A program made the position numbers and the translations under genes. Below are positions 4,259-36,559 of a stretch of DNA of 64,000 nt, piece by piece. The notes beneath the pieces are model-generated. The model made no database searches. It had not been told where the DNA came from and saw only the letters and a list, made by a program, of their open reading frames with translations. How positions within the stretch are numbered: position 1 is the stretch's first letter; each line of letters begins with the position of its first letter. The DNA is taken from assembly GCA_016935615.1 (NCBI GenBank), contig JAFGQO010000052.1:30175-94174 (forward strand), read 5' to 3'. Source of the DNA: Bacteroidales bacterium. Its GTDB lineage: Bacteria > Bacteroidota > Bacteroidia > Bacteroidales > UBA10428.

Positions 4259-4270
4259 TTCGTTTTACCA

Positions 4271-5416
4271 ATGAGAAACTTTCTGAAAGTATTGCCTGTC
4301 TTCGTTGCTTTTTACTGTATGGGATTTGTCGATATTGTCGGAACAGCCGTTAATTATGCTTCCAAAGATTTTGAACTGACGGAATCGACCATGCAGTTTC
4401 TTACCTCAATGATCTTTATCTGGTTCTTTATCTTTTCCATTCCCACAGGTATATTACAGGATAAATTCGGTAAAAAGACCATGGTAATTGCCTCCTTACT
4501 GGTTACTACTTTCGCCATGTTGGTCCCATTTATAATTTATAACTACTATATTCTTATGATCGGTCTGGCACTGATGGGTATCGGCAATACAGTTATTCAG
4601 GTATCACTCAATCCGCTCTTGTATGAAGTATCTTCAAAGGGAAGTTATTCAAGCAATATGTCCCTCTGCCAGTTTATCAAAGCCATTGCTGCATTTCTGG
4701 GCCCTATAATTGCAGTTTTCTTTGTAAGGATATGTGGAGACTGGAAATTTATTTTTATTGTATATGGTTGCCTTTCAATATTGTCCGGAATATGGCTTTA
4801 CTTTACTCCCATTGCAGAAAGTCATAAAAAAGAACAACCTGCAAGTTTCAGTTCAAGTTTTAAGTTGTTTGGCAATATTTACATTTCGCTTATGGTGATT
4901 GGTATTTTTATTGTGGTCGGTCTTGACGTAGGAATGAATACCGGTATTCCCAGTTTGCTGAAGCAATTTAACCTTACGCATGAAGAAGCGATCAAAGGAA
5001 TCAGCTTGTATTTCATTGCATTGATGGCTTCCAGGTTCCTGGGAGCAATTCTGTTAAAAAAGCTTTCTGCCTCTTATTTTCTATTGATCTCGGCAATTGT
5101 TACACTGGCCGGATTGCTCCTGCTGATATTGAGTACTACAGCTTTATTGGCAGGTATTGGAATTGTTATAACTGCAGCTGGTTCTGCAAATATTTTCCCG
5201 CTTATTTTTTCTTTGAGCATCGAAAAATATCCCGGGCAATCAAACGGGATCTCTGCATTAATGATAATGGCAATTTCAGGTGGTGCAGTATTCCCGTTAC
5301 TAATGGGTATCTTTACAGAAAATTTCAATGTCAGAACCGGTATTGTATTTCTCTTTATTATTTCTGTTTATCTTGGTTTTATAAGTATCTGGAATTTGGT
5401 AAAAAGCAGATCTTAA
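4271..5416 (+). CDS. MFS sugar transporter (FucP/glucose-galactose transporter-like)
   Basis: 381 aa, about 12 hydrophobic segments, tightly spaced after the mannosidase gene. Confidence 0.7.
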   Translation: MRNFLKVLPVFVAFYCMGFVDIVGTAVNYASKDFELTESTMQFLTSMIFIWFFIFSIPTGILQDKFGKKTMVIASLLVTTFAMLVPFIIYNYYILMIGLALMGIGNTVIQVSLNPLLYEVSSKGSYSSNMSLCQFIKAIAAFLGPIIAVFFVRICGDWKFIFIVYGCLSILSGIWLYFTPIAESHKKEQPASFSSSFKLFGNIYISLMVIGIFIVVGLDVGMNTGIPSLLKQFNLTHEEAIKGISLYFIALMASRFLGAILLKKLSASYFLLISAIVTLAGLLLLILSTTALLAGIGIVITAAGSANIFPLIFSLSIEKYPGQSNGISALMIMAISGGAVFPLLMGIFTENFNVRTGIVFLFIISVYLGFISIWNLVKSRS

Positions 5417-5680: not shown

Positions 5681-5978
5681 ATTTTTTAACCGATCTTGTT
5701 ATGATTTGTCAAATCCGCCAAACTGTTCAGATGATTTTACCTTGCATGCAACAAAAATACAGGTATATTTTTAATAAATAGCCTTGTTTTAATTAATACA
5801 CATTATTGTCACTACCCTACATATTAATAGGGGTATTGTATATATTTATTATATTTTTTGATGTATACCCTTATTTTTTTGATAGTTATTAACATAATAA
5901 TACATTTTTTTGTTTTTTCTTAATATATTTGCCATTAGAAAAGAAAGCGTTCAATCATTAACTTTTAATAGCTATAAT

Positions 5979-6989
5979 ATGAAAGCAAAACTCGAATACA
6001 TTTGGCTGGATGGCTACAGGCCAACACAGACCATGCGCAGCAAAACACTTGTTGTCTCAGATTTTAATGGCAAACTTGATGGTTGCCCGATCTGGTCATT
6101 CGATGGATCATCAACAAAACAAGCTGCCGGCAACAATTCCGATTGTTTATTGAAACCGGTTGCACTGTTTTCCGATCCTGCCAGAAAAGACGGATGGTTT
6201 GTTATGACAGAAGTATTGAATGCCGACGGTACTCCGCATCCTTCAAACGGAAGGGCTACAATTGATGATGACGATGATGATTTTTGGTTTGGTTTTGAAC
6301 AGGAGTATGTTTTATGGGATCTTGATCATCATACACCGCTTGGTTTCCCTGCTCCGGGTTATTATCCTCCTCCACAGGGACCTTTTTATTGTTCTGTGGG
6401 TGCCGAGTACAATATTGGCAGGAATATCGTGGAAGAACATCTTGATAATTGCATACATGCCGGCATTAATATCGAAGGAATCAATGCTGAAGTCATGAAA
6501 GGACAGTGGGAGTATCAGATCTTTGCAAAAGGAGCAAAAGCAGCCGGTGATCAAACGTGGGTTGCACGCTATATTGCAGAGCGGGTTGGAGAAAAATACG
6601 GTGTTCGCATAAATCTTCATCCAAAACCGGTAGATGGCGACTGGAATGGTTCGGGCATGCATGCCAATTTTTCTAACGGAGCGATGAGAAACGCGGGGAA
6701 CAAAGAGACTTTCGAGAAAATCTGTAAAGAATTTGAAAAACATATACCGGAACACATCGCTGTTTACGGAGCCGACAATGACAAAAGATTAACAGGCCTT
6801 CATGAAACACAATCGATAGACAAATTTAGCTTCGGAGTTTCTGACAGAGGTGCTTCAATCCGTATTCCTGTCAGCACGGTTGAAAACGGATGGAAAGGAA
6901 GACTGGAAGACAGGAGACCAGCTTCAAATGCTGATCCGTACAAAGTGGCTTCAGTCATTATTAAGACAACAAAGAAGGCTTTAAAATAA
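5979..6989 (+). CDS. Glutamine synthetase, short type II-like form (about 336 aa)
   Basis: MKAKLEYIWLDG start at the ATG at 5979 (the track ORF begins upstream at 5910). GS motifs are FGFEQEY, NGSGMHANFS and SIRIP..... TAA stop at 6987-6989. Confidence 0.75.
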   Translation: MKAKLEYIWLDGYRPTQTMRSKTLVVSDFNGKLDGCPIWSFDGSSTKQAAGNNSDCLLKPVALFSDPARKDGWFVMTEVLNADGTPHPSNGRATIDDDDDDFWFGFEQEYVLWDLDHHTPLGFPAPGYYPPPQGPFYCSVGAEYNIGRNIVEEHLDNCIHAGINIEGINAEVMKGQWEYQIFAKGAKAAGDQTWVARYIAERVGEKYGVRINLHPKPVDGDWNGSGMHANFSNGAMRNAGNKETFEKICKEFEKHIPEHIAVYGADNDKRLTGLHETQSIDKFSFGVSDRGASIRIPVSTVENGWKGRLEDRRPASNADPYKVASVIIKTTKKALK

Positions 6990-7008
6990 TCAGAAATTCT
7001 CTGAGAAC

Positions 7009-7254
7009 AAAAAAGAGGTTGTCTAAAAAGTAAATGTAACTATATAAAGAATAAATTTTTACTTTGTGTAACTTCTTGTCTGCTCTGTGAATCTCTGTGT
7101 AACAGTAATTTAAGTTATACAACAGTGCCTCTGCAGAGTAGCTTCAGCGCTCGCGGAAAGTTGCGTAAACCTGCCTGCCAGCCACAGGCTGGTAAACCGG
7201 CCAGGCAGGGAAGACACAAAGCCGCACAAAGACTCTTTGGACAACCTCTTTTTT
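7009..7254. repeat. MITE-like / terminator-embedded element between the two convergent glutamine synthetase genes
   Basis: A perfect 15-nt inverted repeat, AAAAAAGAGGTTGTC (7009-7023) / GACAACCTCTTTTTT (7240-7254), brackets 216 nt. The interior holds CACAGAG/CACAAAG repeats and a GC-rich hairpin block (about 7121-7215). Confidence 0.5.
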
Positions 7255-9443
7255 CATCTGCTGAAAAGCAATTCGCGATATTTTGGTAGAGGCCAGATCT
7301 CATTATCCACAATCTGCTCAAGTTTATCAATATGATAACGAATATCCTCTATAAAAGGAAGGACCGTTAAAGAATACTGATTTGCCTTTTCTCTGGCATT
7401 GATGATAACATTTGCATTTTTTCGTGCTTCAGTCATTTCATTCACCTTAGCTTTGATTGTTGAGATATGTTCAGAAATTGTTAACACCAATTCTTTTCTG
7501 GCAACTGATAAATTCTGAAATTCACTTTGGCCGAATGTTTCTTTTAATCCTTTTATATTATTCATCAATTGAGTCTGGTAATCAATTGCAATCGGAATAA
7601 TCTGGCTTAAAGCAATATCTCCGATCACCCTTGATTCTATCTGAATTTTCTTGGTGAAATTGTCATACCGCACATCGGTTCGCCCCTCAAGTTCCTTCTC
7701 ATTCATGACTTTTTGTGATTTGAACAACCGTTTTGATTTTGTTGAGAGATACGCATCAAGCGATTCAATGACACTGGTAACATTAGTAAGTCCCCTCTTC
7801 GCCGCTTCTTTTTGCCATTCTTCACTATAGCTGTTCCCCTCAAAACGCACATTTTTCGATTCAATGATGTATTTTCTTATTACCTGAAATATTGCCTCAT
7901 CTTTTTTAACTCCTTTATTTATCAATTCATCTATGTCCTTTTTGAACTGAACCAGTTGGTGGGCAACGGCAGTGTTTAACACAGTCATGGGGGCAGCGCA
8001 ATTCACTGAAGCACCAACAGCTCTGAATTCAAAACGGTTGCCTGTGAACGCAAATGGAGAAGTACGATTTCTGTCGGTATTATCAAGTAATATTTCAGGG
8101 ATTTTACCAACGTCTAATTTTAGTTCTGTCTTTTCATCCGGGGTCATTTTTTTAGTTGTAACCCTAACTTCCAATTCATCGAGCATACCGGATATTTTAT
8201 TGCCAACAAACACAGACATGATCATGGGCGGAGCCTCATTTCCTCCCAATCTTAATGCATTTCCTGCTGACACAATACTGGCCCTTAACAAATCCTGATG
8301 AGTATATACTGCTTTTAAGGTGCAAACCAAAAAACTTAAGAATTGCATGTTTGTTTTTGGTTTTTTCCCGGGTGATAAAAGATTCACTCCGGTATTGGTC
8401 ATCAGCGACCAGTTGTTATGTTTTCCTGACCCATTAATTCCTTTGTAAGGCTTTTCATGAAACAACACAATAAAATGATGACGCCTGGCTATTCTTTTCA
8501 TAATATCCATCAGCAGAATATTATGATCAACCGCCAGATTGCATTCTTCAAATACCGGAGCTGCCTCGTATTGATTAGGTGCAACCTCATTGTGTCTGGT
8601 TCGCAAAGGTATTCCAAGCTTATAGGCTTCAATCTCAAATTCTTTCATAAACCCGCTTACACGCTCAGGAATGGATGAAAAATAATGATCATCAAGTTGT
8701 TGATCTTTTTCTGAAGCATGACCCACCAATGTACGATCAGTCATTACAAGATCAGGCCTGGCAAAATATAGTGCCTCATCGACAAGGAAATATTCCTGTT
8801 CAACTCCGAGTGTCGCATAGACTTTTGTAACATTTTTATCAAAATATTCACAAACATCTACAGAGGCTTTATCAATGACAGCCAGTGCCTTTAATAAAGG
8901 GGTTTTATGGTCAAGAGCTTCACCCGTATAGGATACAAATACCGTGGGTATACTTAATGTATTTGCAACAATATATGCCGGAGAGGAAGGATCCCATGCC
9001 GTATAGCCTCTTGCTTCAAAAGTATTACGAATACCACCGCTCGGGAAACTGCTTGCATCCGGTTCCTGTTGTGCCAGATGCTGTCCTGAAAATTTTTCAA
9101 CGACTCCGCCAAATTCCGTATATTCTATAAATGCATCATGTTTCTCAGCCGTGCCATCAGTGAGCGGATGAAACCAGTGAGAAAAATGGGTTGCCCCCAT
9201 TTCAAGCGCCCATGATTTCATGCCGCTGGCAACCTTATCAGCAAGTTTTCTGTCAATTGTATGTCCCTTTTCAATACACTCTGCCACCCCTTCATATGCT
9301 TCCTGTGATAAGTACCGTTGCATTTTAACCTTATCAAAAACATGTATTCCGAAATAATCGGATGTCTTCTTTGACGGAGCCTCTATATAGACCGGTTTTC
9401 TGCTATTTGCATTATGAACTGCCTGAAATCTGATAATAGCCAT
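7254..9443 (-). CDS. glnN: Glutamine synthetase type III (GSIII)
   Basis: 729 aa, the length and N-terminus (FGIHVFDKVKMQRYLS...) typical of Bacteroides-type GSIII. GS catalytic-region motifs are present (EVAPNQYE, NGSGKHNNWS). Confidence 0.85.
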   Translation of the reverse strand: MAIIRFQAVHNANSRKPVYIEAPSKKTSDYFGIHVFDKVKMQRYLSQEAYEGVAECIEKGHTIDRKLADKVASGMKSWALEMGATHFSHWFHPLTDGTAEKHDAFIEYTEFGGVVEKFSGQHLAQQEPDASSFPSGGIRNTFEARGYTAWDPSSPAYIVANTLSIPTVFVSYTGEALDHKTPLLKALAVIDKASVDVCEYFDKNVTKVYATLGVEQEYFLVDEALYFARPDLVMTDRTLVGHASEKDQQLDDHYFSSIPERVSGFMKEFEIEAYKLGIPLRTRHNEVAPNQYEAAPVFEECNLAVDHNILLMDIMKRIARRHHFIVLFHEKPYKGINGSGKHNNWSLMTNTGVNLLSPGKKPKTNMQFLSFLVCTLKAVYTHQDLLRASIVSAGNALRLGGNEAPPMIMSVFVGNKISGMLDELEVRVTTKKMTPDEKTELKLDVGKIPEILLDNTDRNRTSPFAFTGNRFEFRAVGASVNCAAPMTVLNTAVAHQLVQFKKDIDELINKGVKKDEAIFQVIRKYIIESKNVRFEGNSYSEEWQKEAAKRGLTNVTSVIESLDAYLSTKSKRLFKSQKVMNEKELEGRTDVRYDNFTKKIQIESRVIGDIALSQIIPIAIDYQTQLMNNIKGLKETFGQSEFQNLSVARKELVLTISEHISTIKAKVNEMTEARKNANVIINAREKANQYSLTVLPFIEDIRYHIDKLEQIVDNEIWPLPKYRELLFSR

Positions 9444-23154: not shown

Positions 23155-26100
23155 TTATCGGATAACAATTCCCTTCGTAATCATGATCTTTTCTGCGAAA
23201 ATCCTGATGAAGTATACTCCCGGAGATAAAACCGAAACATTCAGTTTCAGATCCTCATTCCCCGGATCTGCATAATGCTGTTCTGATATCAGCACATTCC
23301 CCAGCCTGTCAATTACCTCAATCGATAACTTTTTGTCATTCATTCCTGCCAATTGTATATGAAGAATATCAACTCCCGGATTTGGATAGATCTCTATCGA
23401 CCTGTTCATCATAGAATAAGGAATGGCATTTACATGAGTCACACTTACAGTAACAGTATCAGAGTTTTCGCATGAATTGCTATCCGTTACCATAAGCCAA
23501 TACGTATGATCGCCCACTCCTGCAACACTTCCGGAAACTTCGATACAGGACCCGTCAGAACCGGTACTCCACAAATACGAATAAGATTCATTATCCAATA
23601 GGGAAAGTACAACACTCCCCTGATCAGTTATGGTTGTATCGCTACCAAGATCGACCTCAGGCAATGAATATATGAATAGGCTGACCGGCATACAATCCCC
23701 TTCACACTCTTCAAGTGATTGGGTTACATAATAGGTATACGTTCCGGGTTCTGTTTGGGTAGCAGGAAATATGTTTCCCGAGTATATACAATTTGTAAGT
23801 GCTGTATCTGAATACCAATGGATATTTTCTCCCAGAGCAAACATATCCGGTGTTTCTTCTCCAAAGCAGACAGCCTGGTTTTCAGCGACCGGCAAATCCG
23901 GCACAGGCTTTATTGTAAGCTGAACTGACCTGTAATTGCTTTCACAACCGTTCACGCTCTGAGAAACATAATAGCTGATAGTTCCCGTATCTGATATTTC
24001 CGGTTGATAGACATTCCCTTCGGTCAATAATACATCATCCTTAATACATCTGACCGACATACTCTCTTTCGTATCAGCACTCATCCTCCGGATTCTGCTT
24101 TCGATAGAATGCAAATTCCTCTTCCAGGCAAATTCCTCCTGTTCAAGTGCAGATGTCCAGAAATAAGCCCATGAACCGATATTGTAGAATTCCTTATCCA
24201 GATAACGCGTTCCCCCGGGCAATGCTGTGAATCCGCTTTCATTTGTTGCCCCGGTATTGGGTTCCTTCCAGTACAGATCCGATTCTTCTTTTAATTTGCC
24301 TCCTTCATTCGTTCCTCTCCATTCTCCGGAAAGTGCTTCTGATACTTCCATTCCAAGGTAATTTTCCATTTGCCTCCATTCCCTGTCGGTCGGTATATGC
24401 CATCCTTCCGGACACAGTCCCCTGTTTACTTCATAGCCGGTATAATCCATAGCCTCATCCCACTGGTATAAACCTCCATAGGTGTCACAGTTCTCTTCGC
24501 TGTTATCATAACAATATTTTTCAGCAACCTCATTATTGGTTTGTTCCGTTGTATGACCGATCATAATACCGTAATTCAGGTTTTCAGCCATCCACCATTG
24601 ATCCCCGATCTTCACGGTCAGATATTCCTGTCCGTCCCTCGCATCCACAAGGGATACGATATCCGGATCGGCATACCATTTCACATTCTCTCCCTCTGCC
24701 TGCAACTGGATCGGATCCAGATTCTCACAAACACTCATGTTTTCCGAAACCGGGGCATCGGGCACAGGATAAATGGTCAGAATGACCGTGTCGGCCGGCG
24801 ATTCAACATCGTTGACGGTTTGGGTGACAAAGTAAACATAAGTGCCGGTATCTGTTAAAATAGGCTTGAGGGTATAACCTGAAGCAATTGGATCAGAAAT
24901 ATTTCTCATACAACGTACGGAATAACCATGACTGATATAAGCATTATCTTTATGTAAATCGGCGTTCCCATTTAATACAAGTCGAACCCATGCAACATTA
25001 CCAGTTTGCAAATCAGATGACCAGAAAACGCCACGATCACCAAGAAACCAAAACGTTTCTGAATCATAACTCTTTCTGCCAGCAGGCAAAGCTGTAAAAC
25101 CACTCTCATTGGTTGCCCCGGTATTTGGAGAATTCCAATGCAAAAAACCTTCCTCTTTCATTTTTCCTCCGGCAATTTCATCTCCTCCAAGATACTTACC
25201 TAAATCTATCCAGTCATTATCAGAAGGCAAACGATATCCATCGGGACAGACATCCATTGCAGTTTCCCAATTGTACAACCGGCCATAAACATCCGAATAC
25301 AAAATACTATCATTGTTGTAATACCAGGATCCGGATAAGGTATAAAAATTCAAATTTTCCTTCATCCAGGTTTGGTCATTGATAGTTACCATATTATAAA
25401 TATGATTGTCACGATAATCATATAAGTAACTGGGATTGGCATACCATTTTATATTTTCTCCCTGTGCAGTTAAAAGAACAGTATGTTGTTCTCCACATAA
25501 ATTAACATCTCCGGCAACAGGAGGCAAAGGTCGAATACTAAGTACTACAGTATCGGGATCGCTTTCGCACCCTGATATGTTTTGAGTAACATAGTAAGTG
25601 TATATACCGATATCAGTATGCCCTGTCGGGAAAGGACTCCCTGAATAAATCAAACCGGATAAATGAGGATCATTATACCACCGGATATTTTCACCCGATG
25701 CTGTTAAATCCGGGACAAATTCTCCTTCACATAGGGTAACATCATCTGCTGCCGGAGGCGGAATAACCGAGAGTATATTACCGTATGCATCCAAAGGTCC
25801 CATACATTCATCAGAATCGTCTCCGTCAGGTTCATCGGGACAATCGGGGCAATGTGCCGGTTTAAGACCCGTTCCCCAGGTATAATACCCGTCATTGTCC
25901 TGATCAATGCATCTGATATCAGAATCATTATAATTAACGGAATGTACCGGCCCATGCAAAGAATATACGTATATGCTACCCACTACATAAACATATCCGT
26001 CATTCCCCCAATAACTTCCCCAGCTATTCTTAAACAACCATGCCGTCTGACCAATTAATATGTCATCTTCAAGTATTGTTATCCAGGAGGTCGATCCGTT

Positions 26101-27357
26101 ATTATTAAGATAAATATGGTCACCTTCCTGCAACACTTTATATCCGACCAAAGTCATAGCATGGTTCCAAAAACCTACAGTTGCAGCAGTTGCCCCTTTA
26201 ATAATTTCCCTCTTTTTTTCATCTTCTGATGAATGTGCGCTTTTTGAATTGATTCTTACTATTTCAGCAGAATTAGTGCATTTATTCTCACATGGCAAGT
26301 CATTGGCAGCATAGGGAAAACAACTTTCATTCACAATTCCCGTATCCATAATATAGGTCAATGCACCATTAGGACTACCACCGGCACAACTACCAGCACC
26401 ACTGCATGATAAAACATCCTGTTCGGAAAGATCAGGATCCAGGTGTTGATTGTAATACAAATTCACCAGTAATTCAGTTGCGCCGGTAACGGCAAAAGCC
26501 CAGCAACTTCCGCACCCCCCCTGGTTTTTAACGGAAGTTACCCAGTTCTGCCCATGCCGGTTGCGCCAGCTGAATTCCTTTACAAAGGAAAATCCTGTTT
26601 TGGCTTGAGTGATGGACTTTATCTTATCCTTATCTGCATTCTCTTCAAGTACACCTGGCAAAACAAATATCCCTCCCCTGTAATATTCAAAACCCTGCAA
26701 ATTGGGTACTTTACCACCGAACATCTTCTTTTTTTCCTGGTATGTCATACATGAAACGGATGTTTCCCCGGCAATCCATTTTAGCCCTTTTCTTTCTATA
26801 TACTGATTTATTTTGTTAATTTTTTCCGATTGCTGTTGTTCTAATTTATTGGTTCTGGTCTTTGCAATAAAGGATTCTTCTCCTCTTGTTTCTATTTCTT
26901 TTAAATGAATGGAGGCATCCACTGTTTCAATAGTGATGCTCATCGGAATAATGTTATCCAATATTGCTGTTTCTTCCCCGGTCTGATCAATTTCAAAAGA
27001 CCCATTTTCTGTCAATAAGGGATATGCTTCATAAATAAGGTATTCATTCAACTTATAATCAATAAGGATCACCCGCACCAGGCTTGAATCGGAATACAAT
27101 TCAACAGAGGCTGAGATTGTCAATCCACTGATTTTTCGCTGATCGGTAAAAGGTCGCAACTGAATGTTTTTATCTGTACGGATATTCAATCCTATCCGTT
27201 GATCGGCCTCTTTCAGCATTTTAAAAGAACTCTTACCGGCCATTTGTGAATGGATCGTTGAAGACAAACAAAGAATACAAAACAGCATTAATATTTTTAG
27301 TAATAGTTTATCAATACTGTTAATCAGGATTTTAAAAGGTTTTGCAACTAACAACAT
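23155..27357 (-). CDS. T9SS-secreted multidomain protein: papain-like C1 cysteine peptidase, four Ig-like modules, two FISUMP (Fibrobacter succinogenes major paralogous) domains and a Por/T9SS C-terminal sorting domain
   Basis: C1 catalytic motifs are QGGCGSCWAF (Cys at about aa 285, nt about 26505), WNHAMTLVGY and NSWGSYWGNDGY. FISUMP signatures are YGRLYNW.....CP.G(Y/W)(R/H).P.D.(D/E)W, NTGATNESGFTALP.G and SVRC(M/I). The C-terminal IEIYPNPGVDILHIQL...GVYFIRI is T9SS-CTD-like. Confidence 0.8.
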   Translation of the reverse strand: MLLVAKPFKILINSIDKLLLKILMLFCILCLSSTIHSQMAGKSSFKMLKEADQRIGLNIRTDKNIQLRPFTDQRKISGLTISASVELYSDSSLVRVILIDYKLNEYLIYEAYPLLTENGSFEIDQTGEETAILDNIIPMSITIETVDASIHLKEIETRGEESFIAKTRTNKLEQQQSEKINKINQYIERKGLKWIAGETSVSCMTYQEKKKMFGGKVPNLQGFEYYRGGIFVLPGVLEENADKDKIKSITQAKTGFSFVKEFSWRNRHGQNWVTSVKNQGGCGSCWAFAVTGATELLVNLYYNQHLDPDLSEQDVLSCSGAGSCAGGSPNGALTYIMDTGIVNESCFPYAANDLPCENKCTNSAEIVRINSKSAHSSEDEKKREIIKGATAATVGFWNHAMTLVGYKVLQEGDHIYLNNNGSTSWITILEDDILIGQTAWLFKNSWGSYWGNDGYVYVVGSIYVYSLHGPVHSVNYNDSDIRCIDQDNDGYYTWGTGLKPAHCPDCPDEPDGDDSDECMGPLDAYGNILSVIPPPAADDVTLCEGEFVPDLTASGENIRWYNDPHLSGLIYSGSPFPTGHTDIGIYTYYVTQNISGCESDPDTVVLSIRPLPPVAGDVNLCGEQHTVLLTAQGENIKWYANPSYLYDYRDNHIYNMVTINDQTWMKENLNFYTLSGSWYYNNDSILYSDVYGRLYNWETAMDVCPDGYRLPSDNDWIDLGKYLGGDEIAGGKMKEEGFLHWNSPNTGATNESGFTALPAGRKSYDSETFWFLGDRGVFWSSDLQTGNVAWVRLVLNGNADLHKDNAYISHGYSVRCMRNISDPIASGYTLKPILTDTGTYVYFVTQTVNDVESPADTVILTIYPVPDAPVSENMSVCENLDPIQLQAEGENVKWYADPDIVSLVDARDGQEYLTVKIGDQWWMAENLNYGIMIGHTTEQTNNEVAEKYCYDNSEENCDTYGGLYQWDEAMDYTGYEVNRGLCPEGWHIPTDREWRQMENYLGMEVSEALSGEWRGTNEGGKLKEESDLYWKEPNTGATNESGFTALPGGTRYLDKEFYNIGSWAYFWTSALEQEEFAWKRNLHSIESRIRRMSADTKESMSVRCIKDDVLLTEGNVYQPEISDTGTISYYVSQSVNGCESNYRSVQLTIKPVPDLPVAENQAVCFGEETPDMFALGENIHWYSDTALTNCIYSGNIFPATQTEPGTYTYYVTQSLEECEGDCMPVSLFIYSLPEVDLGSDTTITDQGSVVLSLLDNESYSYLWSTGSDGSCIEVSGSVAGVGDHTYWLMVTDSNSCENSDTVTVSVTHVNAIPYSMMNRSIEIYPNPGVDILHIQLAGMNDKKLSIEVIDRLGNVLISEQHYADPGNEDLKLNVSVLSPGVYFIRIFAEKIMITKGIVIR

Positions 27358-27580: not shown

Positions 27581-29767
27581 GATCTGTTTTATTCAATTTT
27601 TCAATCAACCGAAGACGCCAGGTGGCGGCTGAGCTCGTGAGCGACAGCGAACAAACCACTCAAAAGAATGAAGTTTATATTGAGCCGGGAAAATCCCGAT
27701 ATATCTTATTCAATTTTTCAATCAAACCACAACTATCCTTAATCTGCTCTGCTATTCTTTTTAGATATATCTTATTCAATTTTTCAATCAAACCACAACA
27801 CACGGGAGGGGATGATGGGATAGGTTCTTGATATATCTTATTCAATTTTTCAATCAAACCACAACAAAGCTGCAACAGGAGTAACAGATACAGAAGATAT
27901 ATCTTATTCAATTTTTCAATCAAACCACAACCAACTTTCGGAGATAGTACAACGGCTGGGGATATATCTTATTCAATTTTTCAATCAAACCACAACCGCA
28001 TCAAGCTTGGTTTCAATCCTCGTTAGATATATCTTATTCAATTTTTCAATCAAACCACAACAGTAATTGAACCACTCCATGCAGAGATGCTGATATATCT
28101 TATTCAATTTTTCAATCAAACCACAACATGGTTATTAAAGAACTACGCTAAAGAGGGGATATATCTTATTCAATTTTTCAATCAAACCACAACATAGTAC
28201 ACGAAGGAATTTTTTTATTATTGATATATCTTATTCAATTTTTCAATCAAACCACAACCTCCAAAGCTGCTTTATCCTGCGGATCAGGATATATCTTATT
28301 CAATTTTTCAATCAAACCACAACTTGTCTATTATTATTGTTGTTTGCTGCTCGGATATATCTTATTCAATTTTTCAATCAAACCACAACAGAGTCTAGCT
28401 GTGCTATTGTTAATGTTTGGATATATCTTATTCAATTTTTCAATCAAACCACAACTGCTTCCATTCTGGTAAAAATCATAATCTGATATATCTTATTCAA
28501 TTTTTCAATCAAACCACAACGCTTTTAACAATAGAGGATCTGCGGGAAATGATATATCTTATTCAATTTTTCAATCAAACCACAACAAGAAAAAGGTCAA
28601 GGAAGAAAGATAACAGATATATCTTATTCAATTTTTCAATCAAACCACAACATAGTTAAATATCTGCTTTCCTGTGGTTATGATATATCTTATTCAATTT
28701 TTCAATCAAACCACAACGATCCTGTTATTGACCTCGTTTTTGAACCAGATATATCTTATTCAATTTTTCAATCAAACCACAACACAACTGTAACAGCTGC
28801 CTCTTCTTCTTAAGATATATCTTATTCAATTTTTCAATCAAACCACAACTGTTTCATGCGGTTTGTTTTAATATGTCTTGATATATCTTATTCAATTTTT
28901 CAATCAAACCACAACTAGATCTTGTCTATCCGTTAGGGAAAGGCAGATATATCTTATTCAATTTTTCAATCAAACCACAACTGGCTCTGGAACACGGATG
29001 CGACAGCATAGATATATCTTATTCAATTTTTCAATCAAACCACAACTCTCTAATCTGGATTCAGATTTAGTAGGCAGATATATCTTATTCAATTTTTCAA
29101 TCAAACCACAACTACAATACCGAAAATGATTACGGAATGGTAGATATATCTTATTCAATTTTTCAATCAAACCACAACCACCGGGCAGTACAGGATATCC
29201 AGTTTGAGATATATCTTATTCAATTTTTCAATCAAACCACAACCGTTTTAATACAGACAATTATGAGTTACTGATATATCTTATTCAATTTTTCAATCAA
29301 ACCACAACCATTTGCCAACGCTCATTTTATAACCATAAGATATATCTTATTCAATTTTTCAATCAAACCACAACGGACGTAGTCCGGATACTTTAAAAGT
29401 TAAAGATATATCTTATTCAATTTTTCAATCAAACCACAACACATCTCCATGAGTATATATTTGAGAATAGATATATCTTATTCAATTTTTCAATCAAACC
29501 ACAACATGCTTACTCTTTTTGAAACGATACTAATTGATATATCTTATTCAATTTTTCAATCAAACCACAACTCTTTCTTTCAGCATATTAACCCTCAACA
29601 GATATATCTTATTCAATTTTTCAATCAAACCACAACAACAAAAGGAATTAATTGAATTAGGCAAAGGATATATCTTATTCAATTTTTCAATCAAACCACA
29701 ACTGTTTTGATATCAATAATGTATAAACGTTGATATATCTTATTCAATTTTTCAATCAAACCACAAC
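27581..29767 (-). CRISPR. CRISPR array: 32 identical 36-nt repeats plus one degenerate terminal repeat, 29-30-nt spacers
   Basis: The plus-strand repeat is GATATATCTTATTCAATTTTTCAATCAAACCACAAC. In crRNA sense (minus strand) it reads GTTGTGGTTTGATTGAAAAATTGAATAAGATATATC. Full repeats run from 27698-27733 to 29732-29767, with 31 unique 29-30-nt spacers counted by hand. A degenerate repeat (29/36 identities) lies at 27581-27616, at the end distal to cas2. Confidence 0.97.
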
Positions 29768-29906
29768 CAAGGGCTCTGTATGCCTTTATTTTCAATTATT
29801 ACAGGCGATTTTACGTTATAAAAAACGAATACATACTCCATGGAAGTGGAATGATTTACCAAATTTATGCATTCTGATCCAATATGTCAAAGAACTTTGC
29901 TATAGG
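29768..29906 (-). promoter_or_regulatory. Putative CRISPR leader (between the cas2 stop and the first repeat)
   Basis: A 139-nt AT-rich non-coding stretch lies next to the non-degenerate end of the array, on the side from which GTTGTGG-sense crRNA would be transcribed. Confidence 0.5.
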
Positions 29907-30245
29907 TTAAAATATCTCCAGTTGCTGCGGCCCCTGCGGAAGCGGCAAGGTTTTAGCACCCCAGAAATTAATAATGTCTCCGTATTGCTTATCGGTAATA
30001 AGCAGGATACTTACCTGTCCTTCTTCCGGCACTGCCGATTTTATCCGGCGTACATGCACATCTGCGCTTTCGCGGCTGGCACAATGCCTCGTGTACACAG
30101 AATATTGCATCATATTAAAACCGTCACGTTCCAGACCTTTGCGAAACAGTGTTGCCTTACGTCTTTGTTTTTTCGTCACTACCGATAAATCAAAAAATAC
30201 AAAAACCCACATGATGTGATATGCATTTAACCGTTCCCGTTCCAT
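29907..30245 (-). CDS. cas2: CRISPR-associated endoribonuclease Cas2 (type II)
   Basis: 112 aa. YHIMWVFVFFDLSV.TKK.RR.A..FRK.L..DGF.M.Q.SVY.R.C is typical of type II Cas2. It lies immediately downstream of cas1. Confidence 0.9.
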   Translation of the reverse strand: MERERLNAYHIMWVFVFFDLSVVTKKQRRKATLFRKGLERDGFNMMQYSVYTRHCASRESADVHVRRIKSAVPEEGQVSILLITDKQYGDIINFWGAKTLPLPQGPQQLEIF

Positions 30246-30271: not shown

Positions 30272-30300
30272 CTCTGTCAGGGTTCAAAACCCTGAAAGAG
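30272..30300. repeat. REP-like palindrome copy a (cas1/cas2 junction)
   Basis: CTCTGTCAGGGTT-CAA-AACCCTGAAAGAG forms a 13-bp stem with one mismatch. It sits in the 58-nt gap between the cas1 stop (30304) and the cas2 ATG (30245). Confidence 0.75.
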
Positions 30301-30303
30301 TTT

Positions 30304-31239
30304 TTACTTCAAAACCGGATAATCTATCTTCTTCTGGCTACCTGAAAAGCACCGGGCAAGTGAAGCAGTTGTTTGCGAAAGACCCACCATTAACGGGCGG
30401 GTGGTCTTACCGAAATGCACATCGCGTACCAGCACATTGAGCAGTTCGGCCTTAATTTCTTTTTCCAGGTCTTCCAGTCCCGGATAACTTCCGGCAAGCT
30501 GAAAAACCTGTTCGTCCACAAAAGGACGGTAGGGCTCCATAATGTCGTCGGCCAGGCAATACGCATTATAGCGGTTATGATGATGTATGCCGAACGTGGG
30601 CATTAATCCGCTGCCCGTAAGTGCCCTTGCCACGGCAGCGCGTAGCACAATATACCCGTAATTCAGAAAATTGTTTGGAAACGGACCATAGCGCTCTCGT
30701 GTAAACCCTTCACCAAAAAGCCTTGTCCAGTACAATCGTGCAGCCACACCTTCCCGGCCGGTCGAATCGTCGCTTTTCACATCTTTTGCCAGGGTCTGGA
30801 TATCATTCCATTCTTTTCCCAACTTATCCAGTAACCGTGCCTGGTTGGTTATTTTGGCCTCAACTGTTTGCTTCCATAACCCTTTTTTCAGAGGTTCACT
30901 GATCGACACCTGCTGCCGGAATAACTCTCCCTGCAAATGATTTCCCTCCAGCGGAAAAAGCATGGAATGCGGCATGTGGCTGCTGTTACAAAAAATAACA
31001 GCCACGTTATTAGCTGCTAATTCATCAAGTAATGGCATGCTTATAATGATTTGCTTATGTTCCAGTACTACAAAACCCAGGTCTTCAACCGGAATTGTTG
31101 TTTTATCACCACTTTGCGGATCACTCACCCCTGACAGGGTTTGAAACCCTGTCAGGGGTTCAATCCTGTTTACTATAAGCTGTTTGTTTTTAACTGACAA
31201 ATAGCAGGGGGTTGAAAAATAAACTGTTCTTTTGAGCAT
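30304..31239 (-). CDS. cas1: CRISPR-associated endonuclease Cas1 (type II)
   Basis: ATG at 31239 (MLKRTVYFSTPCYLSVKNKQLIV, a typical type II Cas1 N-terminus). The 25-codon upstream extension in the track ORF is read through a palindrome and is rejected. Conserved Cas1 C-terminal core motifs are GIHH.NRYN.Y.LADD.MEP.RP.VD. Confidence 0.9.
   Translation of the reverse strand: MLKRTVYFSTPCYLSVKNKQLIVNRIEPLTGFQTLSGVSDPQSGDKTTIPVEDLGFVVLEHKQIIISMPLLDELAANNVAVIFCNSSHMPHSMLFPLEGNHLQGELFRQQVSISEPLKKGLWKQTVEAKITNQARLLDKLGKEWNDIQTLAKDVKSDDSTGREGVAARLYWTRLFGEGFTRERYGPFPNNFLNYGYIVLRAAVARALTGSGLMPTFGIHHHNRYNAYCLADDIMEPYRPFVDEQVFQLAGSYPGLEDLEKEIKAELLNVLVRDVHFGKTTRPLMVGLSQTTASLARCFSGSQKKIDYPVLK
31128..31158. 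repeat. REP-like palindrome copy b (in-frame inside cas1)
   Basis: CCCCTGACAGGGTTT-G-AAACCCTGTCAGGGG is translated on the minus strand as EPLTGFQTLSGV. Confidence 0.85.
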
Positions 31240-31261
31240 GGTTATATGTTTTTCTCTTGCG

Positions 31262-31292
31262 CCCCTGTCAGGGTTCGGAACCCTGACAGAGG
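31262..31292. repeat. REP-like palindrome copy c (23 nt upstream of the cas1 ATG)
   Basis: CCCCTGTCAGGGTT-CGG-AACCCTGACAGAGG. This is the stem variant with the T:A pair flipped relative to copies b, d, e and f. Confidence 0.8.
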
Positions 31293-31316
31293 TCAGATAG
31301 TTGTCTGCAAACACTC

Positions 31317-31349
31317 AACGCTGACAGGGTTCTAAACCCTGTCAGCGTT
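31317..31349. repeat. REP-like palindrome copy d (flanks the 3' end of the RAYT gene)
   Basis: AACGCTGACAGGGTT-CTA-AACCCTGTCAGCGTT forms a perfect 15-bp stem. It is identical to copy f except for one loop base. Confidence 0.9.
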
Positions 31350-31360
31350 ACAAATAACAT

Positions 31361-32014
31361 TTAAAAGATCTTTTCTATTCCGGTTAATTCCGGAGGGTAT
31401 TTATGACAGTAAATAGAGTTCTCTTTATCATCGAACCATTCAATAATATCATTTTTCCTGATTATACCTGGTTTATCAGAAACGATTGCATTATATGATG
31501 AATATTCCCAATCCCGGGGATCAGCACAAAAACTGGCTTCCACAGGATTAAAATGAATGCAATGAACCAACTTGTAAAGGTAATTCTCATCGTCTATTGC
31601 CCTGCGCTTAAAAGGTCTGTTAAACAAACTTCCAATACGGCTTTGCTGCTTATTAAAAGCCTGGGTGTAAGCATTGAATAAATTTGAAAACTGTTTGCTA
31701 AAGAAGTTGGAGATGAGTTGTTGCTTTCTCAACCCTGACAGGGTTTCGAACCCTGTCAGGGTTTGGCTATGATTGACTTTTTCTTTCAGATACCTGACAA
31801 CCTCCCGTTTGTTTCTGATTTTAATCAGTAAATGAAAATGATTAAGAAGAAGACAATAACAAAAAGTATGGGCGACAGGATAGATAAAATCCTGATAACG
31901 TTTCATAAAATACCGGTAATTATCATCTGAGGTGTAAAGCTTCTCGTTACCAACAGCCCGGTTGTAAATATAGTAAGTCTTTTCCGGTTCCAGTATGTCT
32001 GTATATTTGTTCAT
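31361..32014 (-). CDS. REP-associated tyrosine transposase (RAYT) / IS200-like Y1 HUH transposase
   Basis: 217 aa. The HUH motif lies in LLLNHFHLLIK. The C-terminal GSLFNRPFKRR...YLYKLVHCIHFNPV carries the catalytic-Tyr helix pattern of COG1943-type proteins. The gene is flanked by palindromes. Confidence 0.8.
   Translation of the reverse strand: MNKYTDILEPEKTYYIYNRAVGNEKLYTSDDNYRYFMKRYQDFIYPVAHTFCYCLLLNHFHLLIKIRNKREVVRYLKEKVNHSQTLTGFETLSGLRKQQLISNFFSKQFSNLFNAYTQAFNKQQSRIGSLFNRPFKRRAIDDENYLYKLVHCIHFNPVEASFCADPRDWEYSSYNAIVSDKPGIIRKNDIIEWFDDKENSIYCHKYPPELTGIEKIF
31731..31763. repeat. REP-like palindrome copy e (in-frame inside the RAYT ORF)
   Basis: AACCCTGACAGGGTT-TCG-AACCCTGTCAGGGTT is translated on the minus strand as QTLTGFETLSGL, between the HUH and Tyr motifs. 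Confidence 0.85.
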
Positions 32015-32042
32015 GGTTATCCTTGAACTTTTAATTTAACCA

Positions 32043-32075
32043 AACGCTGACAGGGTTCGAAACCCTGTCAGCGTT
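32043..32075. repeat. REP-like palindrome copy f (between the cas9 stop and the RAYT ATG)
   Basis: AACGCTGACAGGGTT-CGA-AACCCTGTCAGCGTT forms a perfect 15-bp stem. Confidence 0.9.
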
Positions 32076-32146: not shown

Positions 32147-35100
32147 TTATATCTTTATTATTTCCCCTAATGCTGTTATTTTAAAATCTACACCCTCTAT
32201 AACAGCATTAAAATTTGTATGTATAAATTTTCTATATAAAACAATTGGCTCATTTAGTTCAAATTTTCCATCTTTTACTTTAAGATCACTCTGAGAAATT
32301 GCACATTGATGAAACAAACAAAAAATTACAGCATATTTACCACTTTCTCCAAAACTCTTTATTTCGTATAACCGTTTTTGCAATTCAGAATAATCTTTCC
32401 AATTAATATCATCAATATTTTCATTTTTTTGTAATAAAAGAATAAATAAATCTTGTTTGAGCATTTGCTTTAGTTCCAAATAACATTTTTTACTTCTATG
32501 CTCAAAATAATCATTGATGGGAAGAGTTACATCATTTTCATGGGAATTTAATAGACGACCAACATCTAAATTATTTAAAAAACGATATTTAACAATTTTA
32601 TCATCTGAATATATCCCTAACAAATAATTCCCATCATTATCCACATATGTTTTTTCTTTGTAATCTTTCCCAAATTTTTCAATTCTTTTTTTGTGTTTTT
32701 TTGATTTGTGTGAATTTTCTTTAAGAGGAATTGCAGTTAAATAACCTTTAGCTTTTATCTGGCGGCATCTAATGGTTTTAATTATCATTTCTTTTTTTCC
32801 ATCCTCTACTGGCAACACTATTTGTCCTTTGCTTTTTACGTTTTTTAATCCATATTTTAATATTCTGTCTTGAATCCCTTTGTCAACAATATTTTTAATT
32901 CCTGATTCATTTAAGTTTTCTATGGGCATTCTTTTTACATACCAATCCTCATATACTATATCATCATTTTCGTTCTTTTTAATTTGATTTTTGCTATCTA
33001 GCATTGGACGTTTTATTTTTCCAAAGAAAAAATCTTTATGCAATTTATCCCGAATGCCAGTTGTAATATTATTCGCTTTATCATTATGCCATGTATACCG
33101 CGCTTCTTTCTCAAATACTACTTTACCGTCTTTGTCTTTTACAAACTCATATCCTTTTAAATTAATAGTCCCTTCAGTTTCTCTGTATTCATCAAAACTG
33201 TTTAAAACTTTAATGTTTTGTTTATTATCGACTTTAAAAATATGCAGTATAAAATCAGGGGTCACATCGTTTCGCTTTCCTTTTACGGGAACATTTTTCC
33301 CATTAATATCGGTTTTGTATTTCCACTCAAGTACTTTAATGCTTCCATTAGTGTCTTTTTCAATTTGGTCAGCGCGATGTACAATTTTACCCCGAACACG
33401 TATCTTTTTTTTCGTTTGTTTCTTTAAATTATCCTTGATACGATGAGAAACTAAAATGCTTTCACGTAGATTTTGCATATCAATCAAAAAGTTTTCCCAA
33501 GGTATTAGCTGTTCTCTGGCCTCTACGATCTGTTCCTTTAGTTTTTTAGTCCCCTCGCTTTTTTCTTCTTTATTAAAATGTAAGGCTTTTTTAAGAAGTT
33601 CTTGTAAATAGTAATAGCGCTCTAACTTTTTCAATGTCTCTGGTTTTCTGCGTGCAAAACCAACAAGACAGGCACAATATACAGCGTCAATAGTGTGATG
33701 GACATGGTTGTCACGGCTTTTCTCATATCCTGTAATTTTTCTAAACTCGTCTACAAATAAAGAGCTAATATTGAAAACATTGTTAAAAGCACTTTTAAGA
33801 TATAATAAAGCATATTTGTTTATAATACCTATGTCTGTTAATTGACGATTCTTAAAATCATCAGTTACTTCTGTAAGTTTGAAATTGTTCACTTTCTTTT
33901 GCCAATAGTCAAGATGCATTTTTAAATAGTGACGTTCTTGAATATTGTGGTTTTTAGTGGCTTTATCATGTATGTTTTTTCCTTTACGTTTTAAATCCTC
34001 AATCCTATCTTCCAGTATCTCCACTTTTTTTTCCCAACGTTTTATGAATGTAAGAATTCTATCGTAATCATTACCCAATTCCGATGGGAGTTTATTCCCT
34101 TTTATGCTTCGATTGTAATAACTTTCAGCAATGGTCTTATTTGATAGAGAGTTATCAAATGATTTACTTAAAGGAATAGTATGTTCAATGTCATGTTTAT
34201 TACCATTTATTAAATCGGCCATTCCAATTTGATTCCCGGTATATATACAAATTCCATTCTGCTCCCTCCAAAGACGATACTTTTCGATAGCATAGTCGGG
34301 CAATTTCATCCTTTTTTCTCTTTTTGTAAACTGAGCTGTATGGATTTCCAACTTGTTATAAAATTGTTCTGCTTCGTTTTCGTCTTCCAATTGTTCTACC
34401 CAGAATTTAATTTTGTCTTTTTCATCATTTCCCGGTTGAATATCCAGCTTATTCTCTTTATAGAACTCAACCAATAAATTTTTGTAAAATTCATTCTCTG
34501 TTTCCCTCTCTTTTTGAAAACGTTCAATAGCCTTTCGCATATTATAATCATTCACATCTCTTCCTAATTCAACAACAATCTGAGTTTCATCATCAATAAC
34601 ATTATTGATTAACAATGCATTTATCACTTTCCTTAACTCGCACATAGCACGCATAAACAGGGGATTCTTAATAGAATTTATTAAAGGACTTTTCAGTAAA
34701 CGTACCCCATTTTTGTTAGGTTCTACTTTTGGATAAAATTCAATGGCAGACGGGTGATAAATTTTCTTTGCTTTTTCTTCTTCTATTGCCAATTCATTTA
34801 TTAAATAATCCTGAACTTGTTGCTTTATACTTTTTGTCTTTATAAAAGAACCACCAATATTTCCTGATTGTAATTGTCTCTCAAAATCGGCCTCAACTTC
34901 AGCTATTATTTTATTTCGAATTTCCTGTTCAAAACCATTCCATGTTTTTTCTCCATACTTTTTTAAAAACTGTTTTAACACAATCTCTTTGTCTCTATCA
35001 TCTAAACAATATTTTGTGTGCGCATTTTTTGATTCATTTCTGAAAATAGCAATACAATCATTGACAATATCATTTTTCTTTTTTTCATAGGAGTATTTAT

Positions 35101-36559
35101 CGAAAATACTATTAACATCTTCTAAAATATCATCAGGAATATTTTCTCCTTTTGAAAGTTCTAAAATATCTGGTATTTTGGCCAACAATATTGCTTTGTC
35201 AGGTCGATACCCTTCTATTAGAAATGGCATTATTTTGCCAATTGCTTTAAAACTTAGATTTGCATAACCTTGTTTTATAGGGGCATTAATGAACCTTTCA
35301 GCTTTATCATCACCTAACCCAAACTTATTTTTAGCAATGTCTATTAATGGTCCATCCGCTTTATCCTGAATAAAATGATCAAAAAACATGTGCCAAATAT
35401 CACGGATATCGATATATTTATTTTCTCCCTTTTTATTTTTACCATTATAAAATTTTACGGATTTCCAATCTTCCCCAAACAAATCTTTCAAGTGAGCGCT
35501 TACTGGGCAGCCACTAACCGTTGTTGTATCTTTATAGTTAAATTCATAGATTCCGGTTTTATCAATCATATTATGTATATCTTCAAACTTAAAAGTGCCT
35601 TTGCTTTTTCGATAAAAAAGAGGTAAAATATTTTCTTCAATGCTTATACCAAAATATGTTTGCTCTCTCAATGATTTAAAATTCTTCTTCTCTTCGCCAA
35701 CTTTTTTAATTTTGATATTATTGATAAAAGAATACATCCTGTATTCTTCAAATTCGATAGAACTTAAAGGGCATCGGGATTTACCGGTTTCAAAAACACA
35801 TTTTCCCACATTCCCTTTTTGAGACTTTAAAGGCCGAGCTTCAAAAATTGTCTTTCTAACTTCCTTAATAAATTCTTCCGATAAATTTTGATGTCGACAA
35901 ATTGCGTGAAAATCCAGTTCCAACGTTTTTCGGGAAATTTTATTTTCTTCAGTAGTATTTCGAATTCTTTCTGCCTTTATATGCTTTTGATACAGAATCT
36001 TACTCTTTGGAATATCTCCATATTCTTCTTCGTATTCTTTGTGATACTCAATATCTTTGGGTAAACTTTTTTTGTTTGTACTAACTTCTGTGGCACTTAA
36101 CAGGGATAAAGTATCCTTTTTATTGCTTTTAAATCCTCTTCGTTGTGTTAAGTGATAGAAAATTCGTCCCAATTCTTTTTTTGATAATTTTTCTCCATCG
36201 ACTGCCCTTTTTCTCAATTCATAGGGATTTAATTTAAACCATTCTATAAGTTTCTCTCGAACCGGATAACTTCGTTTTTTATGCCAAGAAGTTAATTCAT
36301 CATCCTCAAAAGGATGGAACTCTTTCCCTAATAATCGTAAAAGTTCAATTTTCCTGCCTTTTCTTCTATAATTTAATTTTCTAGCACCTCTATGAGAGGT
36401 TCTTTCTGCTGCTCTTGATGAATCCTGATATTCATCTCCATAACCTCTTTGAAATATCCTTACACCTTTTTCTTTTAGTTCCAATTTTCCTTCTTTATTT
36501 TCCACCACTGCCCAACCAATGCTGTTGGTCCCTAGGTCAAGTCCTAAAATTTTTGCCAT
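32147..36559 (-). CDS. cas9: CRISPR-associated endonuclease Cas9 (type II-C, 1470 aa)
   Basis: RuvC-I is MAKILGLDLGTNSIGWAVV. The Arg-rich bridge helix is RTSHRGARKLNYRRKGRK. RuvC-II is IVVELGRD. HNH is DIEHTIPLSKSFDNSLSNKT....YNRSIKGNKLP. RuvC-III is NHVHHTIDAV. There is no csn2 or cas4 in the locus. Confidence 0.97.
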   Translation of the reverse strand: MAKILGLDLGTNSIGWAVVENKEGKLELKEKGVRIFQRGYGDEYQDSSRAAERTSHRGARKLNYRRKGRKIELLRLLGKEFHPFEDDELTSWHKKRSYPVREKLIEWFKLNPYELRKRAVDGEKLSKKELGRIFYHLTQRRGFKSNKKDTLSLLSATEVSTNKKSLPKDIEYHKEYEEEYGDIPKSKILYQKHIKAERIRNTTEENKISRKTLELDFHAICRHQNLSEEFIKEVRKTIFEARPLKSQKGNVGKCVFETGKSRCPLSSIEFEEYRMYSFINNIKIKKVGEEKKNFKSLREQTYFGISIEENILPLFYRKSKGTFKFEDIHNMIDKTGIYEFNYKDTTTVSGCPVSAHLKDLFGEDWKSVKFYNGKNKKGENKYIDIRDIWHMFFDHFIQDKADGPLIDIAKNKFGLGDDKAERFINAPIKQGYANLSFKAIGKIMPFLIEGYRPDKAILLAKIPDILELSKGENIPDDILEDVNSIFDKYSYEKKKNDIVNDCIAIFRNESKNAHTKYCLDDRDKEIVLKQFLKKYGEKTWNGFEQEIRNKIIAEVEADFERQLQSGNIGGSFIKTKSIKQQVQDYLINELAIEEEKAKKIYHPSAIEFYPKVEPNKNGVRLLKSPLINSIKNPLFMRAMCELRKVINALLINNVIDDETQIVVELGRDVNDYNMRKAIERFQKERETENEFYKNLLVEFYKENKLDIQPGNDEKDKIKFWVEQLEDENEAEQFYNKLEIHTAQFTKREKRMKLPDYAIEKYRLWREQNGICIYTGNQIGMADLINGNKHDIEHTIPLSKSFDNSLSNKTIAESYYNRSIKGNKLPSELGNDYDRILTFIKRWEKKVEILEDRIEDLKRKGKNIHDKATKNHNIQERHYLKMHLDYWQKKVNNFKLTEVTDDFKNRQLTDIGIINKYALLYLKSAFNNVFNISSLFVDEFRKITGYEKSRDNHVHHTIDAVYCACLVGFARRKPETLKKLERYYYLQELLKKALHFNKEEKSEGTKKLKEQIVEAREQLIPWENFLIDMQNLRESILVSHRIKDNLKKQTKKKIRVRGKIVHRADQIEKDTNGSIKVLEWKYKTDINGKNVPVKGKRNDVTPDFILHIFKVDNKQNIKVLNSFDEYRETEGTINLKGYEFVKDKDGKVVFEKEARYTWHNDKANNITTGIRDKLHKDFFFGKIKRPMLDSKNQIKKNENDDIVYEDWYVKRMPIENLNESGIKNIVDKGIQDRILKYGLKNVKSKGQIVLPVEDGKKEMIIKTIRCRQIKAKGYLTAIPLKENSHKSKKHKKRIEKFGKDYKEKTYVDNDGNYLLGIYSDDKIVKYRFLNNLDVGRLLNSHENDVTLPINDYFEHRSKKCYLELKQMLKQDLFILLLQKNENIDDINWKDYSELQKRLYEIKSFGESGKYAVIFCLFHQCAISQSDLKVKDGKFELNEPIVLYRKFIHTNFNAVIEGVDFKITALGEIIKI

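Follow-up and report, generated by a model that had tools for sequence, protein, structure and literature searches.

REP-associated tyrosine transposases (RAYTs) are regarded as immobile, domesticated genes that spread repetitive extragenic palindromes (REPs) genome-wide. Why, then, does one of them sit with all its REPs inside a CRISPR locus, and is its place there an accident of one genome? The question is raised by a 64,000-nucleotide stretch of a Bacteroidales genome (G000:C91:30175-94174; GenBank assembly GCA_016935615.1, contig JAFGQO010000052.1), which we call the window and whose positions are counted from its first letter. The source, labelled G000, is a metagenome-assembled genome of 3.8 Mb in 225 contigs, with 7% contamination. 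Its type II-C cas operon contains a RAYT gene between cas9 and cas1, accompanied by six REP palindromes. The arrangement is retained in close relatives and is found again, with other RAYT lineages, across the order. We read this tentatively, at slightly below even confidence, as a sign that, in this order, RAYT-REP modules land preferentially in II-C cas operons and are tolerated and retained there.

The RAYT-REP module in a type II-C locus

The genes lie on the minus strand in the order cas9, RAYT, cas1, cas2, followed by the CRISPR array. The locus is a complete type II-C system, with a cas9 that carries HNH and RuvC domains, cas1, cas2 and an array; neither csn2 nor cas4 is seen among the open reading frames (ORFs) of the locus. 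The features, listed in the direction of the operon, are as follows.

32147..36559, minus strand: cas9, type II-C, 1470 aa (TIGR01865, E=1.1e-102; Pfam HNH_4 and RuvC_III)
32043..32075, no strand: REP P6, a 33-nt palindrome in the gap that separates cas9 from RAYT, with a 16-bp stem (RNA hairpin dG -26.1 kcal/mol, z -7.4; homologous copy in L097/L100)
31361..32014, minus strand: RAYT, an HUH transposase of the Y1/IS200 superfamily, 217 aa (NCBIfam NF047646; profile match to PDB 4ER8)
31731..31763, no strand: REP P5, in frame in the RAYT ORF between the HUH and Y motifs, encoding LTGFETLSG (pattern search; homolog alignment)
31317..31349, no strand: REP P4, directly 3' of the RAYT stop (dG -27 kcal/mol; L097 has an identical REP at this position)
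31262..31292, no strand: REP P3, a T-flavour variant about 20 nt 5' of the cas1 ATG (pattern search; relatives; RNA folding)
30304..31239, minus strand: cas1, type II-C, start ATG 31239 (type II cas1 model TIGR03639, E=1.8e-89; homolog alignment)
31128..31158, no strand: REP P2, in frame in cas1 (Cas1 homolog alignment; relatives)
30272..30300, no strand: REP P1, a degenerate copy between cas1 and cas2 (pattern search; same place in L100/L101)
29907..30245, minus strand: cas2 (TIGR01573, PF09827)
27698..29770, strand not assigned: CRISPR array, about 31 repeats with a 66-bp period (TRF)

The six palindromes had been proposed by a first-pass annotation made from the letters of the window. All of them are recovered by a pattern search for the core CTGACAGGGTT-N3-AACCCTGTCAG, with matches at 30274, 31131, 31265, 31321, 31735 and 32047. 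They are near-perfect, carry 0–3 core mismatches, and have an expected number of 0 in 100 shuffles. P4 and P6, the 33-nt copies that bracket the RAYT, differ by a single loop base as had been reported, and REPs are present on both sides of the gene as well as inside it, in agreement with the REP-RAYT-REP arrangement that had been recognized. The placement of P2 inside cas1 and of P3 and P4 between RAYT and cas1 also stands. The alignment of homologs places the start of cas1 at ATG 31239 and not at GTG 31314. P2 adds approximately 11 residues (PLTGFQTLSGVSD) to the N-terminal domain of Cas1. The same insertion is present in the relatives L097 and L100, and is otherwise without a counterpart in the aligned Cas1 homologs.

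The distance from the cas9 stop to the cas1 start is 907 nt, as first measured, and it is filled by the RAYT module. In those II-C loci of the order that lack a RAYT, the two genes are separated by 6–26 nt, and no palindromes are found at their cas9-cas1 junctions. The RAYT and its REPs therefore constitute an insertion into a gap that is otherwise short and free of palindromes.

Two further RAYT-less II-C loci, L031 (G139) and L049 (G135), have unusually long cas9-cas1 gaps of 663 and 757 nt. L031 and L039 carry GTAGAGAC...GTCTCTAC palindromes nearby. The long gaps and palindromes may represent other insertions at the same junction.

On the far side of the operon, the CRISPR array adjoins a gene for a 1400-aa protein (23155-27357, minus strand) with repeated GATNESGFTALP motifs. 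By eye, its C-terminal region resembles the sorting domain of the Bacteroidota type IX secretion system. The short ORFs at 27675-29770, whose peptides are repetitive (MIYLIQFFNQTTT, YILFNFSIKPQ), are translations through the CRISPR repeats and not genes.

Conservation, recurrence and REP copy number

The nearest homologs of the RAYT, P0002 (77% identity) and P0003 (69%), are encoded on contigs from other samples. The relatives' contigs, L097 (JGI metagenome), L100 (GCA_964633305) and L101 (JGI), have an identical cas9-RAYT-cas1-cas2 order and the same CTGACAGGGTT-N3-AACCCTGTCAG REP family. REPs are shared with the relatives 5' of the RAYT, 3' of it (in a copy identical to P4) and in frame in cas1, where they encode a PLTGFQTLSG insertion; the REP in the cas1-cas2 gap is shared by L100 and L101. 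Orthologous REPs are 88–100% conserved, compared to 75–89% for the flanking RAYT and cas1 DNA. Since the same REPs occupy the same places in relatives whose RAYTs are 69–77% identical, the comparison indicates that the module has long been kept in the source lineage and is stable there over substantial divergence. The first-pass annotation had named a one-off selfish invasion as the parsimonious explanation. This view is not supported, given the presence of the same module and REP places in the closest relatives, and the several RAYT subclades that are found at the same junction.

Downstream of its RAYT-bearing II-C locus, L100 directly continues into a second, type I-B-like locus at 5942-7736, with Cas6b and another Cas1.

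The number of contigs and the contamination of the source assembly raise the concern that the RAYT region was joined to the cas locus by a chimera during assembly. The independent assemblies from other samples, together with a GenBank genome, contain the same arrangement and refute such an artefact, to which we attach next to no probability. Logan contigs of the source run span from cas1 into the RAYT, and contigs of salt-marsh relatives likewise cover cas1 and RAYT. Of the three salt-marsh runs covered, two give a weak joint between 31219 and 34173; one side of it has only 22 letters, and it is not trusted.

P5 is 18 nt longer than its counterpart in close relatives, and the salt-marsh metagenome relatives have the RAYT in place without those 18 nt of the internal REP, so that P5 is a recent expansion in the source lineage. 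A REP at this position is a common feature of the family: most RAYTs of this Bacteroidota clade contain their own lineage-specific REP in frame; its site is homologous among them and lies after the HUH strand and before the Y helix. Examples are found at 31731-31763 of the window, L015 9909-9936, L017 10136-10168, L021 1553-1585 and L092 6038-6072. The encoded peptide is quasi-symmetric, TLxGFxTLxG, and is visible in the consensus of the RAYT family. The in-frame self-REP may bear on the origin of REP families or on self-regulation.

The first-pass annotation had proposed a comparison of the cas9-cas1 junction in related genomes and metagenomes. A Y1 gene recurs there in the relatives described above, and does so across the order. 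Among 401 sampled genomes of the order, Cas1 homologs are present in 141 and RAYT homologs in 119. Manual cross-reference of the genome tables with locus checks places the RAYT inside a CRISPR-cas locus in approximately 15 of the approximately 53 genomes that carry both RAYT and Cas1. RAYTs inside II-C loci are spread over many families of the order. Most occupy exactly the cas9-cas1 junction and keep the same orientation, as in G000, G005, G008, G013, G092, G152, G197, G201 (truncated RAYT), G223, G230, G259, G271, G329, G333 and G422, with divergent RAYTs in G130 and G283. Other placements are the cas1-cas2 junction in G255 (L058, G255:C313) and the region beyond the distal array end in G201 and G376 (L087/L090), each with REPs of its own. 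Every cas-resident RAYT comes with a lineage-specific REP family. A single-copy gene placed at random would be expected in a 5–10 kb locus in well below 1% of cases; the cas9-cas1 site is used far more than chance would give.

The phylogenies point to repeated entry. In the RAYT tree (IQ-TREE, 51 rows), the cas-junction RAYTs are scattered among the others, and well-supported branches force at least 5 changes of label. In the Cas1 tree, the module is present in most loci of one clade and makes at least 3–4 further separate appearances. Taken together, the two trees indicate that RAYT-REP modules entered II-C loci several independent times, and they require at least 4–5 acquisitions. In our searches of the literature, we met with no published description of a RAYT in a CRISPR locus.

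The REPs themselves are largely bound to the locus. The source assembly contains only the six palindromes, all of them on contig C91 in the cas locus, when up to 4 mismatches are allowed; the half-site 9-mers are not enriched elsewhere in the assembly, and there are no hidden copies at its contig ends. The earlier impression that the palindromes are concentrated on the cas operon and not dispersed is hence borne out for the whole of this assembly. REPs and REPINs are high-copy, genome-wide and extragenic sequences, whereas the six copies described here all belong to the cas locus and two lie within coding sequence. For other cas-resident RAYTs, the copies at the locus account for 3 of 3 in G005 (a complete genome), 4 of 4 in G223 and 5 of 10 in G259. 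Two RAYTs located elsewhere have dispersed REP families, of 28 copies in G031 (19 away from the RAYT) and 54, mostly dispersed, in G038. The contrast between cas-resident and other RAYTs is a comparison of four genomes (including G000) with two.

The reads of the source run provide a different picture of abundance. Logan contigs of this run and of the three salt-marsh runs break at the REPs, with very high k-mer depths at the REP cores. In the source run the depth is ~1700–5000 at the palindromes compared to 10–25 on the flanks (31113-31313, 31716-31916). Sequences sharing the REP core are therefore abundant somewhere within the sediment sampled for the source run.

The RAYT and the loss of its catalytic tyrosine

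The assignment of the 217-aa ORF to the Y1/RAYT transposases, first made from its motifs, agrees with the profile searches. The ORF matches the NCBIfam model NF047646 (REP_Tyr_transpos) with E=3.1e-13 and 49.9 bits, under the trusted cutoff of 80, and has no Pfam match at 1e-3. A profile built from 30 RAYT homologs matches PDB 4ER8, the Escherichia coli TnpAREP, with E=2.3e-4, while a single-sequence phmmer search of the RAYT against the PDB gives no match. Homologs in Bacteroidota are annotated as "REP element-mobilizing transposase RayT" or "Transposase IS200-like". The HUH motif NHFH occupies residues 58-61 (H59 and H61) and is invariant in the 30 homologs.

The profile match suggests that the protein shares the fold of a Y1 HUH nuclease for single-stranded DNA (ssDNA) with TnpAREP, a YafM-type RAYT in which the two histidines have the same residue numbers (PMC3479197, PDB 4ER8). 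As in E. coli, the gene is single-copy in its genome and is located between its own REP hairpins. Differences are apparent in the repeats and in the active site. The REPs of E. coli are extragenic and number hundreds of copies, whereas about six are present here, all in the cas operon and some of them in frame in RAYT and cas1; nor are the E. coli RAYTs found in CRISPR loci. TnpAREP has its catalytic tyrosine, Y115, on helix alphaD, along with N119 and H123 (PMC3479197). In the profile alignment to 4ER8, C152 of the window RAYT is placed at Y115, N156 at N119, and an alanine, also present in close homologs, at the position of H123. The tyrosine is retained in 29 of the 30 homologs, including the nearest two; the window copy has Cys152 instead. 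Its codon is TGC (31559-31561), and the window is matched at this site by one Logan contig from the source run.

The first-pass annotation was thus right about the HUH motif and overlooked the substitution in the helix that it quoted as the Y motif. By homology, the ORF is a RAYT of the Y1/IS200-like superfamily that lacks one of its defining features, the catalytic Tyr. Judged from HUH chemistry, Cys152 probably deprives the protein of the covalent phosphotyrosine cut and of the ability to cleave DNA. The case for any model in which it acts as a hairpin-cutting enzyme in the source strain is weakened accordingly.

The substitution also bears on the proposal that the module is an active, autonomous IS200/IS605-like element, composed of TnpA and hairpin ends, whose transposition into the cas operon is recent and which could still move. 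Such an element would account for the HUH/Y1 homology, which the RAYT shares with the TnpA proteins of, for example, IS608 and ISDra2, and for the REP-like hairpins that flank the gene in the manner of the left- and right-end hairpins of IS200/IS605. In these insertion sequences, however, the catalytic Tyr is a characteristic feature, and the subterminal hairpins, recognized as ssDNA, differ between the left and right ends. The RAYT is not multicopy, its flanking hairpins are near-identical, and its tyrosine is replaced by Cys. The REP positions, including the in-frame REP in cas1, are shared with the 69–77% identical relatives, and the insertion is accordingly old and fixed in the lineage, not recent. 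We consider an active insertion sequence to be largely refuted and its probability to be low.

Landing site or co-option: two possible readings

The explanation we prefer, with the hesitation expressed at the outset, is that a domesticated REP-RAYT module, consisting of a Y1/HUH ssDNA transposase of the IS200/IS605 superfamily and its own REP hairpins, is a long-term resident of the cas9-cas1 junction. Several RAYT subclades would have entered the same junction independently and would then have been inherited with the locus. The REP copies would have spread in cis only, into the RAYT, the gap between RAYT and cas1, in frame into cas1 and into the cas1-cas2 gap. In the source genome, the RAYT would probably be non-cleaving, with the REPs persisting as very stable hairpins in a cas mRNA whose co-transcription we infer.

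Several points weigh against this explanation. No conserved insertion target at the cas9-cas1 junctions was identified by inspecting RAYT-less loci, where no systematic motif search was made, and the junction sequences vary among lineages; it is hard to argue for sequence-specific targeting alone. A purely parasitic model would predict a similar spread of REPs for all RAYTs, yet they are local in the cas-resident systems and dispersed in the others (n=4 and n=2). The depth of the Logan contigs hints at an abundance of the REP core in the sample, and some genomes with this family may have copies outside the locus. Finally, selection for a function is another possible reason for the repeated use of one exact junction.

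In such a functional co-option, the REP hairpins would act in the cas transcript, possibly bound by the RAYT, or the RAYT would act in acquisition, and the recurrence would reflect selection. It is possible that the hairpins set the expression or mRNA processing of cas1-cas2 apart from that of cas9, breaking a tight translational coupling, or that the RAYT takes part in the acquisition of spacers, for example by acting on ssDNA hairpins. The REPs fold into very stable hairpins in the RNA sense of the operon (dG -19 to -30 kcal/mol, z -4 to -9), consistent with a role in the transcript. Co-option is likewise favored by the use of the same junction in at least 4–5 independent lineages, the retention of the module over long divergence with REPs more conserved than the flanking DNA, and the restriction of REPs to the locus in cas-resident systems. 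A role confined to binding would survive the loss of the catalytic Tyr; one that depends on cleavage would be lost in the source strain.

Other observations speak against a function. The module is not required, as most II-C loci are without a RAYT; in at least 13 of the 30 top Cas1 loci the module is absent and cas9 and cas1 are tightly coupled. The position of the RAYT varies in some loci, where it is found at the cas1-cas2 junction or at the array end. The REPs are not terminator-like in the direction of the operon. Intrinsic termination, considered as a form of operon punctuation, is not supported, as terminator-like features are present only on the plus (antisense) strand.

Taken together, we regard functional co-option as doubtful, though not negligible. 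Its more specific form is given a somewhat smaller chance still: some RAYT-REP modules would have been co-opted to act in cis on cas1-cas2, as a unit of regulation or processing, with RAYT-bound hairpins for which cleavage is not required and which set cas1-cas2 expression apart from that of cas9. Their repeated independent capture at the cas9-cas1 junction across the order would then be due to selection rather than to an insertion bias. Two results fit the functional link that the first-pass annotation had raised, namely that the palindrome is not dispersed in the assembly and that related cas loci do contain the Y1 gene. A preference for the insertion site fits both of them equally well.

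The proposed residence of a domesticated module at the cas locus can be compared to the REPIN-RAYT systems of Groups 2 and 3 from Pseudomonas and Enterobacteria (Bertels & Rainey; PMC5581495). They share with it a domesticated single-copy RAYT and cognate palindromes that co-vary with the RAYT lineage. REPINs, however, are paired REPs amplified genome-wide, whereas the cas-resident systems described here keep 3–10 copies that are mostly local. On copy number, RAYT Groups 1 and 4, with few flanking repeat copies, are the closer analogy (PMC5581495).

The nearest published case are the insertion sequences of the DDE family in the II-C locus of Flavobacterium psychrophilum, where IS982 is inserted between the tracrRNA and cas9 and IS256 inside the array (PMC10309648). 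Both cases represent mobile elements in a II-C locus of Bacteroidota and within a co-transcribed region, which for the window is presumed. In F. psychrophilum the elements are ordinary DDE insertion sequences at other positions, while the module described here is of the HUH/RAYT type and is recurrent at cas9-cas1.

What the first-pass annotation observed is confirmed and extends more widely than it had seen; a systematic, recurrent link between RAYT-REP modules and type II-C loci would be moderately surprising to specialists. The repeated settling of these modules at one site of a CRISPR-Cas operon, with repeats that stay there, has a bearing on the movement of RAYTs and the origin of REP families. 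It also touches on whether acquisition is regulated by HUH ssDNA nucleases, or by hairpin RNA elements, that CRISPR loci recruit. Either reading is testable in cultured relatives, one of which, G005, has the same arrangement in a complete single-contig genome. A functional association would add a new accessory module to type II-C systems; an insertion bias would identify cas operons as a favored landing site for Y1 transposases.

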